This document shows, one piece after another, positions 2,439 to 8,021 of a stretch of DNA of 8,021 nucleotides. Every line of letters starts with the position of its first letter. Within the stretch, counting starts at the first letter, position 1. The DNA comes from a virus (lineage: Duplodnaviria > Heunggongvirae > Uroviricota > Caudoviricetes). The DNA is taken from IMG/VR virus record IMGVR_UViG_2778261358_000014; one strand, given 5' to 3'. Under the pieces are notes generated by a model, which made no database searches, was not told the DNA's origin, and saw only the letters and a list, made by a program, of their open reading frames with translations. Made by a program: the position numbers and the translations under genes.

Positions 2439-2641
2439 TCCCCACTACTCCCCACTTTTGCTCCCCACTTTTTGAAATTACCCACCGTCTCCCCACCTCT
2501 TTTTTTTGTGATTCTAACGTTATGTTTTTCAATATGTTTTTTACTCCCCACTTTTTTGGGTATATACAGGTGGGAAAGTGGGTAATTATGTTTCAATTTT
2601 GTTAAATTCCCCACTCCCCCCACTTTTACTCCCCACTTTTT
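2439..2641. repeat. Iteron array, putative island replication origin
   Basis: At least eight direct copies of (CT)CCCCAC(T)4-8 (at 2440, 2450, 2463, 2491, 2546, 2609, 2616, 2631) plus an inverted copy GGTGGGAAAGTGGG (2569-2582), flanking an AT-rich core (about 2500-2545). It starts directly at the stop codon of the Rep helicase gene. Confidence 0.6.
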
Positions 2642-4040
2642 ACAGCGGGCGCACGTCATCACCGTCAATAACGATTACGCCATCATTTTCCAGCTTGTAC
2701 AGCCAGCGCCGGAAGTGCTTCATCTCATACCCCAGCTTTTTCATATCGTCGCGGAGAAGGGCGATAGTGCACGCCTCCCCGTGTGCTGTTCGTGTTCTGA
2801 TGCACTGCCATAGCGCGGCGTGATTCTCCGTCTTGTTCCCTGCCTCCTCGATGCGCTCCAGTTCAACGGGAGGGCGCGGCTTATCCACCACCACCAGCGA
2901 CGTGATTAACTCCCCGTCAGCGTCGGTAAAAAGCTCCACCACGCGTAAGTCATATGCTGCTTCTTTGAGTTCCTCCGCGTCCTTCATTTTGGTACATGAG
3001 ATAACCAGCGCTTCGCTGCCTGCGTCCTCCCTGCGTATCCGGTATTCGGCGTCCAGTGATGCACGAAATGCACTGGAACCACGCGCCCCCTTTGTTTCAT
3101 CCTTGCCGGAATGGTGAACCACCAGCACCGTTGCCCCTGTGCGCCGTTTCAGTTCGTCACACCCACGGATAAACGCCCCCATATCACGGGAATCATTTTC
3201 ATCATTGCCGCCAAAGCAGCGCGCCAGCGTATCCAGAATAATCATTCGAACCGGTTTACCCGTTTCCCGTTCCACCTGACGGGCAGCGATAACCATTTCC
3301 TCAACATCAAGCGGGGCAGCCGGAAAGATGGGACGGTTTACCAGATACAGATTTTTCACCTGCTCACCGTGCACAACCTCCCAGGCTTTTACACGACGCG
3401 GAACGCCGATACCGCCTTCACCAACCACATAGAGAACAGCGCCATGCGCCACCCTGCGGCCTCCCCACTGGCGGCCCGTGGAAACGTGACACGCCCACGA
3501 ACCCGCAAGGAACGATTTATATGAACCGCTCGCCCCGTATATGCTGCACAGCGATACCGCCGGAATAATCCCCTTAACCACGTAATCAAGTTGTGTGTCG
3601 TATCCGGCAGATCCCACGCTCATTGGTAGCGTGGTTTTTCGCTGGTGGTGTTTTTCTTCCCCTGGCTTTTTCCCCCGCTCCCGTTCCAGATATTCGCGCC
3701 AGTTCTCCCGCTTCTGGCTGTGCATCCCTTCGGGGTAATAATTCGCATCAGTTACACCCGCCGCCGCCAGCTTGTGCGCAATGGCATTAATATTTGATGG
3801 CCTGATGTGGCCTGCCTTGTACAGCCGGACACAATAGCGCCCCTCGTCGATGATTCTCAGGTCTGCCAGTTCATCCAGTTGATCATCAGCCAGCACAACG
3901 GGAGGCACATTATCGCCAGCCAGTCGCCCGTCCTGTTCCTGCCACTGTTTCGCATGTGCCCAGGCATCACTACCCGCAAAAATAATGACTTCGGTCATCT
4001 TGTCGTAAGGCTGTTTTTTTAAGTTCGGTGCGCTTTTCAT
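2640..4040 (-). CDS. RepA-like replicative helicase (RecA-fold / AAA_25-type ATPase) with a C-terminal putative origin-binding domain, 466 aa
   Basis: Walker A GASGSYKS (residues 169-176, nt 3513-3536), Walker B VRMIILD (about residue 270) and the VLVVHHSGKD motif typical of RepA/DnaB-like helicases. The start ATG overlaps the stop of the upstream ORF (ATGA). The gene is immediately followed by iterons. Confidence 0.85.
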   Translation of the reverse strand: MKSAPNLKKQPYDKMTEVIIFAGSDAWAHAKQWQEQDGRLAGDNVPPVVLADDQLDELADLRIIDEGRYCVRLYKAGHIRPSNINAIAHKLAAAGVTDANYYPEGMHSQKRENWREYLERERGKKPGEEKHHQRKTTLPMSVGSAGYDTQLDYVVKGIIPAVSLCSIYGASGSYKSFLAGSWACHVSTGRQWGGRRVAHGAVLYVVGEGGIGVPRRVKAWEVVHGEQVKNLYLVNRPIFPAAPLDVEEMVIAARQVERETGKPVRMIILDTLARCFGGNDENDSRDMGAFIRGCDELKRRTGATVLVVHHSGKDETKGARGSSAFRASLDAEYRIRREDAGSEALVISCTKMKDAEELKEAAYDLRVVELFTDADGELITSLVVVDKPRPPVELERIEEAGNKTENHAALWQCIRTRTAHGEACTIALLRDDMKKLGYEMKHFRRWLYKLENDGVIVIDGDDVRPL

Positions 4041-4799: not shown

Positions 4800-5017
4800 A
4801 ACCCCCCCTCCCCATTTTCACAATCAGCAACAAGAATATTTTTAGCGTCATTCAGCGACCGCGTGGCGGTGTATCGGATACATTCCAGGGCGAACAATGT
4901 GTATTCTTCCCGTTCTTCCTTTTGTGCAAGCCCTGCTGTGCATTCAATATCAATAAGCGCATGCATCAGCGTAGTGAGCGCGGCGGCTGCTGCGTCCGGT
5001 GTGGTTTTATTGCACAT
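4772..5017 (-). CDS. Hypothetical small protein (81 aa)
   Basis: Internal ATG at 5017 preceded by AGGAGG (6-nt spacer). It overlaps the stop of the upstream repeat-containing ORF, suggesting coupling. The ORF track's upstream extension to 5059 lacks an RBS. Confidence 0.5.
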   Translation of the reverse strand: MCNKTTPDAAAAALTTLMHALIDIECTAGLAQKEEREEYTLFALECIRYTATRSLNDAKNILVADCENGEGGLCVMIVLIP

Positions 5018-5567
5018 GGCACACCTCCTGACGAATACGGGCGGCGAATACAGCAACACAACCGGACGGGCAACGGCTACGTGCTTCGCGTTCCGTCCAG
5101 GCGGTTACGTGGATGATTTGATGTTCTGACGCGCCAAAGATGATAAAGCGCCAGAGAAAGGCGGTTTGAGAATGTACAAGGGTAGGGATAGTAGCCATGT
5201 TGGCAGCCTCCTCAGTGTGGTTAAGATAACCGCCACCGGAAACGCCAATTTCGCTGGTGGCGGACTGTACAGGGTTGGCGTAACCGGACACTGAAGAAAC
5301 CGGCGCGGATTGCTCCGCCCCCGTACAGCCCACCATTGATAAGGTGTGACTATGCGGCACAAAAAAACACGCGGGGCGCGTGTTATGCGCTTCAGTTTTG
5401 CCCAGGACGCCAATCCCGGCACCCGTTTTATGAGGTGCGCGGGAATCATAGCTATTTTCGACACTGGCGATCAACTGGTTTTTTTCTCCGATATTCAGGG
5501 CCAGAAAACGCCACACAAAGGCCGTTTGTGTGTGTACAAGGTGTGGTATATGATTTACGGCAACCAT
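5007..5567 (-). CDS. Repeat-containing open frame (186 codons) with two RBS-preceded in-frame starts (5567 and 5198); may be one protein, two paralogous small proteins, or a partly noncoding leader
   Basis: AGGAG + ATG at 5567 and AGGAGG + ATG at 5198. The paralogous N-terminal segments (M..IPxLVH[ST]QTAF[LV]WRF) differ mostly at third codon positions. An intrinsic terminator sits inside the frame at 5357-5384. The ORF track's 409-aa extension beyond 5567 is rejected. Confidence 0.3.
   Translation of the reverse strand: MVAVNHIPHLVHTQTAFVWRFLALNIGEKNQLIASVENSYDSRAPHKTGAGIGVLGKTEAHNTRPACFFVPHSHTLSMVGCTGAEQSAPVSSVSGYANPVQSATSEIGVSGGGYLNHTEEAANMATIPTLVHSQTAFLWRFIIFGASEHQIIHVTAWTEREARSRCPSGCVAVFAARIRQEVCHVQ
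5357..5384 (-). terminator. Strong intrinsic terminator on the minus strand, about 210 nt downstream of the leftward promoter
   Basis: Stem AACACGCG / CGCGTGTT (8 bp, GC-rich, 3-nt loop, plus-strand 5366-5384) followed on the minus strand by a run of seven U (plus-strand A-run 5361-5367). Confidence 0.55.
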
Positions 5568-5596
5568 AACGGCTCCTAGTTTACGTTGTTGGTTAG

Positions 5597-5638
5597 ACGC
5601 CCCGTATGTGTTCCCAGCACTGCGGGGCGTTGATTTTT
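5597..5638 (+). terminator. Hairpin plus T-run on the plus strand (terminator-like); its complement also forms a 5' leader hairpin of the leftward transcript
   Basis: Stem ACGCCCCG / CGGGGCGT (5597-5604 / 5623-5630) with an inner 5-bp helix, followed by TGATTTTTGTG. It sits 18 nt after the stop of a plus-strand ORF (5352..5579) that is antisense to the leader ORF. Confidence 0.4.
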
Positions 5639-5655
5639 GTGTAATGGCAAGTACA

Positions 5656-5704
5656 ATGGTAATTACCATGTAGGTATAGTAATGAAGGGTAATTACCATG
5701 TCAA
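5656..5704. promoter_or_regulatory. Switch region: leftward sigma70-like promoter (-35 TTGACA, 17-bp spacer, -10 TACTAT) overlapped by two palindromic operators (ATGGTAATTACCAT and GGTAATTACC)
   Basis: Minus-strand TTGACA corresponds to plus 5699-5704 and TACTAT to plus 5676-5681, with an exact 17-bp spacer. The perfect 14-bp palindrome is at 5656-5669 and a 10-bp palindrome at 5688-5697, centres 30 bp apart. A plus-strand TATAGT (5675-5680) shares the -10 region. Confidence 0.5.
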
Positions 5705-5871
5705 CACCATTAGAAAAACGTTCGCCTCCATACCAAATGCGATTACCGGAAGACTTCAGAGCGCAGCTAGAAGAAGCAGCTAAGGCCGATGGCGACACAT
5801 CTTTAGCCACTTGGATTAAACGCGTTCTCCGCAAAGAATTACAGCAACGCGGCATAGAACCCAAAGGATAA
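5698..5871 (+). CDS. Ribbon-helix-helix (Arc/MetJ/CopG-type) DNA-binding protein, 57 aa; candidate island repressor. Not in the ORF track
   Basis: Translation MSTPLEKRSPPYQMRLPEDFRAQLEEAAKADGDTSLATWIKRVLRKELQQRGIEPKG has the Arc-type pattern (beta-strand MRLPEDF, then two helices). AAGGG RBS upstream. Palindromic operators lie immediately upstream. Divergent from the replication operon. Confidence 0.65.
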   Translation: MSTPLEKRSPPYQMRLPEDFRAQLEEAAKADGDTSLATWIKRVLRKELQQRGIEPKG

Positions 5872-5928
5872 AAACTATCAGCGCCGTGGTGTGAGGTATT
5901 ACGGCGCATTGCTATGCAGGACAACACA

Positions 5929-6102
5929 ATGACCGATAAAGAATTGACCAAAACATTATCACCGGCACGGAAAAGACGGCGCAGAAAGATAGAGCATGAA
6001 TCAGAAAGATTCGCGCCATGTGCTTTTGCCCTTGAGCAATTCCTTAAAGAGTACAGGGAAAAGCGCTCATTGCAGGTATGGCAACGAACTGAACCAGACT
6101 GA
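5929..6102 (+). CDS. Hypothetical small basic protein (57 aa) downstream of the RHH gene
   Basis: ATG at 5929 preceded by AGGAC (7-nt spacer). R/K-rich stretch (SPARKRRRRK). Same transcription unit as the RHH gene, ending at the terminator at 6198. Coding status uncertain. Confidence 0.3.
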   Translation: MTDKELTKTLSPARKRRRRKIEHESERFAPCAFALEQFLKEYREKRSLQVWQRTEPD

Positions 6103-6197
6103 TTGCATTGCCCACCAGCCTGATAGCGGCTATCATCCCCGTGCTTATGTTTGGGATCACATACACATAAGGCGCAGCGGGTTAATTGTTCAGAAAG

Positions 6198-6224
6198 GCG
6201 GCTCCATATCGGGGCCGCTTTTTT
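6198..6224 (+). terminator. Rho-independent terminator between the convergent RHH unit and alpA, possibly bidirectional
   Basis: Stem GCGGCTCC / GGGGCCGC (8 bp including one G-U pair, 5-nt loop) followed by TTTTTT (6219-6224). The alpA stop is at 6251 on the opposite strand. Confidence 0.65.
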
Positions 6225-6250
6225 CGTGTTTGTCATATCTGTGATACCCG

Positions 6251-6457
6251 TTAAGCAGCCGTTCCGCGTGCTTCCTCTTCGCGTTCTTTCTGCCAGGACA
6301 ACACATCATCCTCATACCATCCGCGACGGCGTAAACCAACGCGAAAACCCTGCGGAAATTCTCCGGCGTTGATCATGCTTTGCAGCGTGCTGTCTGCCTT
6401 GATGTGGATAATTTTTTTTACTTCCTGGCGAAAGATAATTTTTCTGATTGCTTCCAT
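6251..6457 (-). CDS. alpA: AlpA/Vis-family transcriptional regulator (excisionase-like MerR-type HTH), 68 aa
   Basis: Motif ...LQSMINAGEFPQGFRVGLRRRGWYEDDVLSWQ matches the AlpA signature (FP...G.R..GW.E.DV..W). RBS AAGGT upstream of ATG 6457. Located next to a P4-type integrase, as in P4 (Vis) and CP4-57 (AlpA). Confidence 0.8.
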   Translation of the reverse strand: MEAIRKIIFRQEVKKIIHIKADSTLQSMINAGEFPQGFRVGLRRRGWYEDDVLSWQKEREEEARGTAA

Positions 6458-6624: not shown

Positions 6625-6807
6625 TTACCGCCATTTTTTGGGCCTGCCTCCGATCTTCATAGATGCCGGACGTACGACCTTATCAATACTTACCGCCAGA
6701 TTTCTGGAAGCGCCACGGGATACCAGAAAATCTACTACCTGTTTTTTTGATGGGGCCGTCGTTCTGTCCTCCGGATCGTAGGTTGACCAAAATTCATGCT
6801 GAACCAT
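6625..6807 (-). CDS. Hypothetical small basic protein (60 aa) translationally coupled to the 3' end of the integrase
   Basis: Its ATG (6807..6805) overlaps the integrase stop TGA (6809..6807) as ATGA. The frame ends 12 nt before the terminator. The ORF track's longer version (from 6855) overlaps the integrase coding sequence. Confidence 0.3.
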   Translation of the reverse strand: MVQHEFWSTYDPEDRTTAPSKKQVVDFLVSRGASRNLAVSIDKVVRPASMKIGGRPKKWR

Positions 6808-8021
6808 CAGGGCCAGTTGCAGCCCGTCGCCGCAGCCTCGACAAATTCGCCCCACCAGCGCATCAGCACGATGCGTTTTTCTATGTAGTTGCTCCGGTTG
6901 TATGCCCGTCTAACTTCGTTGGTGTCGACGTGGGCAAGTGCCGCCTCTATTACGTCCGGCTCGAATCCTTCCTCGTTCGCTGCTGTGCTGAATATGGCGC
7001 GTAATCCATGAGACACCAGCACGCCAGCGAATCCCATACGCCGCAATGCTGCGTTAGCTGTCTGGCTGTTCATCGGCTGCTGTGGGTCTTTCAGACTTGG
7101 GAAAACGTAATTGCGGTGGTGGCTGATTGGTTTCATGGCCTCCAGCACCGCCATAGCCTGACCGGAAAGCGGGATAACGTGATCCCTGCGCATCTTCATG
7201 CGTCCGGCAGGTATCGTCCATTGCTTCGCGTCCAGGTTGATTTCATCCCACCGCGTTGATGACGCTTCGGCGGGACGGGTTACGGTCAGTAACTGCCATT
7301 CAATCAGTAATCTGGTCTGCCGTTCTGTTGCCGATACTGATAAAGCCTGCATAAGCTCGGGCAGCTGTTCGGGGCGGATTGTTGGCATATGTTTTTTTAC
7401 AGGTGAGGGAAACGCCTTACGCACATTCATAGCCGGATTGGCATCAATCAGCCCACTGTTGGCGGCGTAATCCATTACCTCATTAACGCGCTGTAAAACC
7501 CGCTTGAGTGTTTCCAGGTTGCCGCGCTCCTTGATGGGGGTAAGCACTTCAACGAACCTTCGGGCGGTGAGGGTATCTATTGGCGTGTTGCCGATGAACG
7601 GGAATACATATTTATCCAGCGAACGCCAGATGTCTTTAATCGTGTTGGGGGCCAGATTCTGGCTGATTTTCACCTGGTACCATGCCGCCGCCACATTTTC
7701 GAACGTGTTCCCTTGTCTTCGGGCCTCTGTCTCTCTTTTTTGCCTCTCGTGGTCCTGCGGGTCAGTTCCGGCACTGATTAACGTCCTGTACTCGCTACGG
7801 CGTTTTCTGGCATCAGCCAGGGAAACATCTTCAAGCGATCCAAAACTCAGCAATATTCTTTTTTTGTCCGATGGTCGGTAGTAGGAAAATCTCCAGAGTT
7901 TTGATCCAGACGGTTTGACCAGGAGAAAAAGCCCTCCGCCGTCCTGCAGGGTGTACTCCTTTTGCGCTGGTCTGGCTGCTTTGATCTGCACTGTGGTTAA
8001 TGGGTGTGTTTTTCTCGCCAT
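6807..8021 (-). CDS. int: Tyrosine site-specific integrase, P4-type, 404 aa (complete; ATG is the last three bases of the window)
   Basis: N-terminus MARKTHPLTTVQIKAARPAQKEYTLQDGGGLFLLVKPSGSKLWRFSYY is the characteristic P4-integrase N-terminal (arm-binding) motif. The C-terminus carries HGLRAIF (HxxR) and the VRRAYNRSNYIEKR region with the catalytic Tyr. Confidence 0.9.
   Translation of the reverse strand: MARKTHPLTTVQIKAARPAQKEYTLQDGGGLFLLVKPSGSKLWRFSYYRPSDKKRILLSFGSLEDVSLADARKRRSEYRTLISAGTDPQDHERQKRETEARRQGNTFENVAAAWYQVKISQNLAPNTIKDIWRSLDKYVFPFIGNTPIDTLTARRFVEVLTPIKERGNLETLKRVLQRVNEVMDYAANSGLIDANPAMNVRKAFPSPVKKHMPTIRPEQLPELMQALSVSATERQTRLLIEWQLLTVTRPAEASSTRWDEINLDAKQWTIPAGRMKMRRDHVIPLSGQAMAVLEAMKPISHHRNYVFPSLKDPQQPMNSQTANAALRRMGFAGVLVSHGLRAIFSTAANEEGFEPDVIEAALAHVDTNEVRRAYNRSNYIEKRIVLMRWWGEFVEAAATGCNWP

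Follow-up and report, generated by a model that had tools for sequence, protein, structure and literature searches.

Paired palindromes at opposed predicted promoters and an adjacent Arc-type ribbon-helix-helix gene as a candidate switch of the replication operon in a phage-inducible chromosomal island of Escherichia coli

Results

Two palindromes lie at opposed predicted promoters in the island control region

We analyzed an 8,021-nt stretch of Caudoviricetes DNA (IMG/VR record IMGVR_UViG_2778261358_000014; hereafter the window), which is the regulatory core of a phage-inducible chromosomal island (PICI) of Escherichia coli. Its control region of about 150 bp is one conserved module, from which genes run in both directions. 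The leftward operon begins with a 186-aa Ash/Icd-like open reading frame (ORF; 5007-5567, - strand; full-length match to PHROG 29966) and continues with small ORFs, a DUF4222 gene, the RepA-family helicase that is its replication gene (AAA_25; 2640-4040, - strand), and later terS and a capsid gene. The only rightward genes in the window are that of a 57-aa Arc-family ribbon-helix-helix (RHH) protein (5698-5871, + strand; MSTPLEKRSPPYQMRLPEDFRAQLEEAAKADGDTSLATWIKRVLRKELQQRGIEPKG) and a small downstream ORF. Loci of other species have an Icd-like gene or another small ORF after the same leader, in Xenorhabdus an ORF of 812-924 aa begins directly at the leader, and a primase is annotated further down the operon in 'Pasteurella phage Pmp8' (OR544139.1, 15.3 kb), in EcCICFT073 and in E. 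coli strain A5. Because of the helicase or primase downstream and the large Xenorhabdus ORF at the leader, early/replication operon is a fair name for the leftward unit.

The two putative operators lie at 5656-5699. O1 is a perfect 14-bp palindrome, ATGGTAATTACCAT (5656-5669), with the core GGTAATTACC at 5658-5667, and O2 is AGGGTAATTACCAT (5686-5699), in which the same core, at 5688-5697, is perfect. The 13-mer GGTAATTACCATG is an exact direct repeat at 5658-5670 and 5688-5700, with the two centers 30 bp apart. The exact 10-mer GGTAATTACC occurs in the window only twice, in O1 and in O2, and the number of further operator copies elsewhere in the window is within chance expectation.

Promoters were predicted by a consensus scan of the window, and their scores are matches out of 12. 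The predicted early promoter, P_left (5676-5704, - strand; 10 of 12), has the -35 element TTGACA at 5704-5699, a 17-nt spacer and the -10 element TACTAT at 5681-5676; the -35 overlaps the ATG of the RHH gene, and transcription would start near 5669. The predicted RHH promoter, P_right (5630-5657, + strand; 9 of 12), has TTGATT at 5630-5635, a 16-nt spacer and TACAAT at 5652-5657; its start would be near 5664, and the Shine-Dalgarno sequence of the RHH gene, GAAGGG, follows at 5684-5689. By these predicted coordinates, the 10-bp copy in O2 falls in the leftward promoter's 17-nt spacer and stands between the RHH gene's Shine-Dalgarno sequence and its ATG, and the 14-bp copy, O1, spans +1 to +14 of the leftward promoter and overlaps the -10/+1 region of the rightward one. 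Because the expected start points face each other about 5 bp apart, RNA polymerase would occupy one promoter at a time. An earlier sequence-only reading of the window had described a perfect 14-bp palindrome at the leftward start, a 10-bp palindrome in the leftward spacer just before the RHH ATG (5698), and a 30-bp distance between their centers; the first has exactly those coordinates and covers the leftward +1, the promoter scan bears out the second, and the exactly repeated 13-mer confirms the third.

The same reading had the operators overlap the divergent promoter of the replication operon; their overlap with two opposed promoters is a geometry that is predicted in the window and is conserved across genera. 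We fetched 72 loci from other species and compared about 45 control regions that are not identical. In 44 of 49 loci the A of the start codon is followed directly by TGTCAA, which is the -35 read on the opposite strand, and a leftward -10 of the form TAnnnT follows at a spacing of 17 or 18 in 36 of the 49. The rightward -10 (TAnnnT) ends 4-5 nt to the left of the center of the upstream palindromic site (site 1, the counterpart of O1) in 29 of 39 loci. The sequence ATGTCAA is constrained as DNA, for the third residue of the RHH protein varies (T, I, S or N) with the sequence retained.

The 57-aa ORF encodes an Arc-type protein

Judged by its sequence, the 57-aa ORF is an Arc-type RHH protein, as had been proposed for it. 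It matches PHROG 228, 'Arc-like repressor' (E 1.5e-6), and 2 of 93 homologue clusters carry the NCBI name 'Arc family DNA-binding protein'. The predicted secondary structure is that of an RHH protein, with a strand at about residues 10-16 and helices at 18-31 and 36-50. An alignment of 73 sequences shows the motif SPQYQMRLpEEFRaQLEE..DGDxSLATWIKRvLRKEL, which has the RHH order of strand (PQYQMRL), helix A (EEFRAQLEE), turn (DGDxS) and helix B (LATWIKRVLRKEL). Profile comparison with Arc (hhalign) aligns RSPPYQMRLPEDF with KMPQFNLRWPREV in register (E 5.5e-4) and puts Q11, Q13 and R15 at the Arc positions Q9, N11 and R13, the base-contacting residues of Arc. The AlphaFold monomer model (pLDDT 77.7) has two helices, with the strand region unstructured as expected for a monomer, and its top Foldseek matches are mostly RHH proteins (NikR, Arc, VapB, MazE9 and ParD2). 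A sequence search of the PDB was dominated by designed helical-repeat proteins, which we set aside as compositional matches to the two helices; AmrZ was the only RHH protein among the matches (E ~0.5-1). The homologues, nearly all of 56-58 aa, occur in Enterobacterales, Pasteurellaceae, Aeromonadales and Gilliamella (Orbales). The protein stops 7 residues past helix B, without an oligomerization extension and without a C-terminal toxin-binding tail.

The lack of such a tail bears on an alternative in which the RHH protein has no target but its own gene, or serves as antitoxin to a toxin encoded behind it; the replication operon would then depend on read-through that begins at the alpA promoter, with a TTGACA at the start codon that does not work as a promoter. 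RHH antitoxins do autoregulate via palindromes, a small ORF stands behind the RHH gene both here and in EcCICFT073, and AlpA activates downstream genes in EcCICFT073 (PMC6092414). The small ORF, orf62 (5914-6102, + strand; 62 aa, or 57 aa from M6 at 5929), matches PHROG 21027, a family of unknown function, has no match in Pfam or among toxin families, and was not detected by tblastn in any of the 72 RHH-bearing genome loci that we fetched; we rejected the toxin-antitoxin reading on these grounds. Since the TGTCAA and the -10 at 17-18 bp are also conserved as DNA, the alternative as a whole is improbable. The product of orf62 is very basic and begins with MTDKELTKTLSPARKRRRRKIEHESERF; in EcCICFT073 (locus L078, 7243-7416) the same ORF trails a different, unrelated allele.

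The palindromic sites vary together with the RHH protein

In the ~45 control regions, which come from Enterobacterales, Pasteurellaceae, Aeromonadales and Orbales, a palindromic site (site 2, corresponding to O2) abuts the start codon, and site 1 stands upstream of it at a distance of 27-35 bp in most loci, with 30-31 bp in 26 of 39. Site 1 differs from the site-2 core of its own locus by a mean of 1.4 mismatches and from the cores of other loci or groups by 3.2. The cores also follow the arm and strand residues of the protein encoded beside them. Proteins with RSPQYQM, RSPPYQM or RSPPFQM go with the core GGTAATTACC, those with KTDQYQI/L (at least eight lineages) with TGTAATTACA at both sites, those with RSPQFPM with GGTATATACC, and those with NPPFQF with GTGTAATTACAC. 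The outer operator base (±5) follows the three residues just before the strand, and the central bases follow the second polar residue of the strand, a pattern consistent with a single dimer on each palindrome, whose sheet would sit in the central major groove and whose arms would extend to the outer bases. Because the sequence of the sites co-varies with the strand and arm residues, the RHH protein is their likely binder, and its binding would imply repression of the leftward early/replication operon as well as autoregulation.

It could be argued that another factor (AlpA, or a host or helper-phage protein) binds the palindromes and that the co-variation reflects linkage, since the RHH gene and the sites are adjacent and co-inherited. 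Nothing direct points to such a factor. The changes affect only those arm and strand residues whose Arc counterparts read DNA, are matched to the changed bases and occur in several independent lineages, and tblastn indicates that the module travels without the AlpA of the window. We regard this explanation as very unlikely.

O1 and O2 also form a 12-nt inverted repeat that is 100% complementary, with the arms 20 nt apart (5656-5667 with 5688-5699), so that the pair might instead act as nucleic-acid structure, an RNA hairpin or a cruciform. A Serratia locus (L014, ~2955-3000) would suit this idea, as its asymmetric site 1, GGTCGTTACC, recurs at site 2 as an exact reverse complement, GGTAACGACC; no other locus has this arrangement. 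Neither predicted transcript, however, includes both copies, and about half of the loci combine a site 1 (GGTCGTTACC or GGTCATTACC) and a site 2 (GGTAATTACC) that lack complementarity, which graded affinity for a protein tolerates and a stem does not. A structural role is thus the most improbable of the explanations that we considered. Many loci pair a perfect site 2 with an imperfect site 1 (GGTCGTTACC or GGTCATTACC), and this fits the look expected of operators with graded affinity.

RNA elements lie downstream of the palindromes

The Icd-like domain (NF033153) of the first leftward ORF comprises the last 63 of its 186 codons (5198-5007), and two immunity RNAs lie inside the same ORF. The first is an isrK-family RNA (5362-5438, - strand; Rfam 66 bits, gathering threshold 50), a relative of P4 seqA and P1 a1b1, with its own terminator at 5384-5366. 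The second is a C4 antisense RNA of the P1 C4/P4 CI type (5253-5340, - strand; 77.6 bits, gathering threshold 45), which is complementary, over 10-13-mers, to an upstream target at 5407-5416 and a downstream target at 5236-5248, about 40 nt before the Icd ATG. From these family matches and complementarities, C4, isrK, the targets and icd are a complete RNA immunity module downstream of the palindromes, in the P4 layout of seqA/CI/seqC. The equivalence of isrK to seqA has been described, and the 'Bro zones' of PICIs are already known to carry such RNAs (PMC10111431). Besides the window, C4/isrK was found in 4 of 40 other loci scanned, all four in Pasteurellaceae. Because so few RHH loci have these RNAs, the RHH switch is an independent module. 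A 46-nt direct repeat (76% identical; 5145-5190 and 5505-5550) duplicates the Icd-like N-terminal motif (..TQTAF.WRF..), with one copy at the start of the 186-aa ORF and the other at the start of the Icd-like domain. In a Testudinibacter island (L031, 5529-5594, - strand) the int-alpA RNA of Rfam (RF02996, 48.6 bits) lies upstream of an alpA-like gene; the window has no match to this family.

A conserved rightward intrinsic terminator (5596-5639, + strand) occupies the leader, with a hairpin at 5596-5631 and a T-run at 5630-5639, and ends at the -35 of P_right. Of 17 predicted pairs, 13 belong to the 5596-5631 hairpin, and 11 of the 17 show compensatory changes. Counts of wobble pairs (54 G.T against 6 A.C cells) assign the structure to RNA of the + strand, as does alifold (-19.3 kcal/mol for the + strand and -11.5 for the - strand), and on the wobble counts we ruled out that the hairpin is a leader structure of the leftward mRNA.

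The terminator would end a small antisense RNA. Despite differences in the encoded N-termini, 36 of 39 loci have a TAnnnT hexamer at a distance of exactly 10 nt ahead of the complement of the leftward start codon; in the other three loci the anchor seems to have been misplaced, and every other offset has at most three such hexamers. In the window this candidate -10 is TATGAT (5549-5554), inside codons 5-7 of the leftward gene. No good -35 was found for it in the loci compared, where only the -10 is recognizable, with TGn in a subset. Because of the fixed -10, the co-varying + strand terminator and a stable fold (-33.6 kcal/mol, z = -4.2 in the window), we predict an antisense RNA of ~80 nt (~5561-5640; with its promoter, 5549-5640, + strand). 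The first leftward gene has its Shine-Dalgarno sequence (5573-5577) and its AUG (5567-5565) within the stretch complementary to the predicted RNA, the first stem-loop of this RNA displays CCUC/CUCC as an anti-Shine-Dalgarno sequence, and the RNA matches no family in Rfam. The antisense module is conserved in about 40 loci and in EcCICFT073.

These elements raise the alternative that the RNA layers (C4/isrK and the antisense RNA) hold the island silent, as in P4 with its constitutive early promoter, and that the RHH protein merely trims the promoter output and its own level. The P4 precedent (PMC10111431), the position of C4 and isrK between promoter and icd with complementary targets on both sides, and the conserved antisense module that we predict all lend it weight. 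Yet among the window and the 40 loci scanned, C4/isrK accompanies the RHH gene only in the window and the four Pasteurellaceae loci, and most islands show no controls at the promoter other than the RHH protein and the antisense RNA. Moreover, an operator inside the -35/-10 spacer is typical of a real repressor, and the allelic repressor/operator cassettes described below suggest selection on specificity. We consider a primary role of the RNA layers unlikely, while giving it some weight.

The surrounding genes identify a PICI, and an antisense frame covers the RHH gene

The island gene set comprises int, alpA, the Icd-like gene, the RepA-family helicase, terS and a capsid gene. The genetic makeup expected of a Gram-negative PICI is found, namely int, alpA, a replication module and packaging/capsid genes in an island of ~8-15 kb that occupies a fixed place on the chromosome. 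The island of strain E2865 measures ~8.4 kb and is flanked by tRNA-Pro and yejO, with the tyrosine integrase (6807-8021, - strand, in the window) adjoining tRNA-Pro; the O157:H7 relative of the island adjoins phoQ, as does EcCICFT073. The AlpA-like regulator/excisionase (6251-6457, - strand) is convergent with the RHH gene, and a terminator (6192-6224, + strand) separates it from the RHH-orf62 unit. This terminator is strong, with a 14-pair hairpin and a T6 run.

RefSeq (PGAP) has no RHH gene in E. coli E2865 (L001, 9699-9869) or O157:H7 F8092B (L074, ~3609-3782) and instead calls an 'Icd-like pseudogene, missing C-terminus' antisense over it. Because the gene is unannotated in the two RefSeq records examined, with the antisense pseudogene called in its place, it may have been overlooked. 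In the window an antisense frame of 409 codons (5007-6236, - strand) opens 15 nt after the alpA stop, passes through orf62, the RHH gene and the switch, and reaches into the Icd-like ORF. No locus with a placeable start has an interrupted RHH frame, and the antisense frame is broken in about half of the related loci, so we rejected the 409-aa ORF as a conserved coding frame. It is open in all five C4-bearing loci and also in ~35-40% of the loci without C4. P4 offers a suggestive parallel, as eta is translated there from an upstream late promoter and its translation keeps CI from causing termination (PMC10111431), and the antisense frame may be such an eta-like read-through frame or a mere shadow ORF.

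The RHH module is widespread and is replaced by other cassettes

Of 5,426 complete E. coli genomes, 472, O157:H7 included, carry the RHH module at a coverage of at least 80%. The copy in an O157:H7 strain is 98.9% identical, and the leader/terminator alone occurs in many more genomes, where other cassettes follow it. By tblastn with the other proteins of the window, the module moves separately from the rest of the island, and the AlpA of the window was not detected by tblastn in other loci. EcCICFT073 (L078, 7243-7870) has at the same position a divergent YlcI/YnfO-type 59-aa gene with an RHH-like pattern, and GTGGGCCAC occurs there twice around a promoter TTGACG-18-TATAGT. In E. coli strain A5 (L079, 1500-1975) the position is taken by a 101-aa allele, with GTGTTTCATG and CATGAAACAC around TTGACG-17-TAACAT; this allele has an RHH-like N-terminal part followed by a C-terminal extension. 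Both cassettes stand behind the same leader/terminator as in the window, and exchangeable repressor/operator cassettes behind a shared leader suggest the look of immunity regions.

In 'Pasteurella phage Pmp8', a packaged island, the RHH gene (L075, 5007-5183) is the only rightward gene, and the gene content (terL, terS, portal, protease, capsid and adaptors) is that of a capsid-forming PICI. RHH homologues are also encoded on 120 plasmid records, many of them 42-61-kb plasmids of Klebsiella, Salmonella and Enterobacter; these plasmids may be phage-plasmids or carry inserted islands.

Discussion

The best explanation of these results is probably that the RHH protein represses the early/replication operon and autoregulates. 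In the mechanism that we propose, RHH dimers would bind the two GGTAATTACC copies. Bound at O2, in the spacer of the strong P_left, the protein would shut off the early operon with its Icd-like gene, small ORFs, DUF4222 gene and helicase; bound at O1, it would reinforce this shut-off and limit its own synthesis, which amounts to negative autoregulation. The switch would be one of several locks, as the ~80-nt antisense RNA would pair with the ribosome-binding site of the first leftward gene, and the C4/isrK pair, of the P4 CI type, would terminate or block the transcript before icd.

Several points weigh against this explanation. Chance alone gives about 8.6 perfect palindromes of at least 10 bp in a simulated 8-kb window with this base composition, and one of at least 14 bp in 43% of such windows, so a palindrome by itself is not significant. 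P_right matches the consensus at just 9 of 12 positions and is less clear in the TGTAATTACA group. A Pfam search of the RHH protein gave no match, the Foldseek E values of this very small domain are close to 1, and the lines of fold evidence from sequence are individually weak. The C4/isrK immunity of the window could alone keep the operon off, and the 30-bp spacing, in a protein without an oligomerization domain, speaks against classical RHH cooperativity, which is typically between adjacent dimers. Gram-negative PICIs have been described as transcribed unidirectionally, with an unclear global repressor (PMC6092414), and AlpA, the helper-induced activator, is their demonstrated master regulator (PMC6092414, PMC11773190). 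The weight for function comes from the exact duplication, the position and the comparative data, and of these the comparative evidence is decisive.

The sequence-only reading had cast the RHH protein as an autoregulated master repressor of the replication operon that binds its paired sites cooperatively. We retain repression and autoregulation, which, like the binding itself, we infer from the conserved geometry and the co-variation of sites and protein. Cooperative binding finds no support, with the sites 27-35 bp apart in most loci and a 57-aa protein that lacks an oligomerization extension. Nor does the word master, since the same operon has the C4/isrK module and a predicted antisense RNA and since AlpA holds that position in the work just cited. 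The idea that the repressor also sets helper-phage specificity was carried over from staphylococcal Stl and likewise gains no support from our data.

In kind the proposed switch is of the classical Arc/Mnt type, here carried by a satellite. Our comparisons with P22 and pMV158 are drawn from established knowledge. As in P22 immI (Mnt/Arc, Pant/Pmnt and sar), a small RHH repressor gene stands opposite to the repressed operon, the operator lies within overlapping opposed promoters so that repressing one favors the other, and a small antisense RNA, here predicted, faces a ribosome site in the repressed operon as sar does; the proposed action at O1 and O2 resembles that of Mnt at Pant/Pmnt. Unlike immI, the operon consists of Icd-like and replication genes, with no Ant match among the leftward genes; there are two palindromes 30 bp apart instead of a single 21-bp operator bound by a tetramer; the 57-aa protein lacks the C-terminal tetramerization domain of Mnt; and the element is a satellite, not a phage. 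The joint action of an RHH protein on transcription and a cis-antisense RNA on translation of a replication operon recalls CopG and RNA II on repB of pMV158, but copG is the first gene of the operon that it represses, whereas the RHH gene is divergent, the pMV158 circuit controls plasmid copy number, and the kinship is one of fold only.

Like P4 CI and P1 C4-icd, the leftward operon contains C4 and isrK family RNAs and complementary targets, followed by icd. In P1, a protein operator (C1 at Op51) likewise lies on the promoter of the C4-icd operon, whereas P4 lacks a protein repressor at its early promoter; here the RNA immunity is a layer separate from the RHH protein and occurs in a minority of RHH islands. 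The arrangement also resembles Stl(Rpr)-Str of the Staphylococcus aureus pathogenicity islands (SaPIs) and other Gram-positive PICIs, in that the repressor gene lies between the integrase and the replication module, is divergent from the replication operon and shows allelic diversity; Stl, however, is a large helix-turn-helix protein co-oriented with int, and the RHH protein has 57 aa and is convergent with int-alpA. EcCICFT073-type PICIs have in common with this island the gene set, the leader/terminator module and, in EcCICFT073, a small divergent RHH-like gene at the same position.

Helper-phage induction via AlpA is known for EcCICFT073, EcCIMP1 and EcCIEDL933 (PMC6092414, PMC11773190, bioRxiv 10.1101/2022.09.08.507074), and the AlpA-activator model is repeated in later work (PMC11773190; bioRxiv 10.1101/2022.09.08.507074). 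We found no description of an RHH repressor or a divergent RHH cassette in Gram-negative PICIs in the open-access literature, subscription journals being outside the search. A wider and much more tentative proposal, which we think has a limited chance of being right, is that Gram-negative PICIs, EcCICFT073 among them, have in the divergent RHH cassette their 'missing' global repressor, that the exchangeable alleles of this cassette define immunity or helper-response groups, and that it works together with the sar-like antisense RNA. Relief by a helper phage might then come from AlpA-driven transcription antisense through the RHH gene, like that from the P4 late promoter through eta, which would silence the RHH gene and bypass the block at its promoter; in C4 islands, translation of the antisense ORF (6236-5007) would also prevent RNA-mediated termination.

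With the RHH protein, Gram-negative satellites gain a candidate repressor. The natural pairs of protein and operator specificity would be useful as small orthogonal repressor parts. If the proposed switch is true, the regulatory model of these satellites changes, and it would explain how the toxic Icd and the replication genes stay off.

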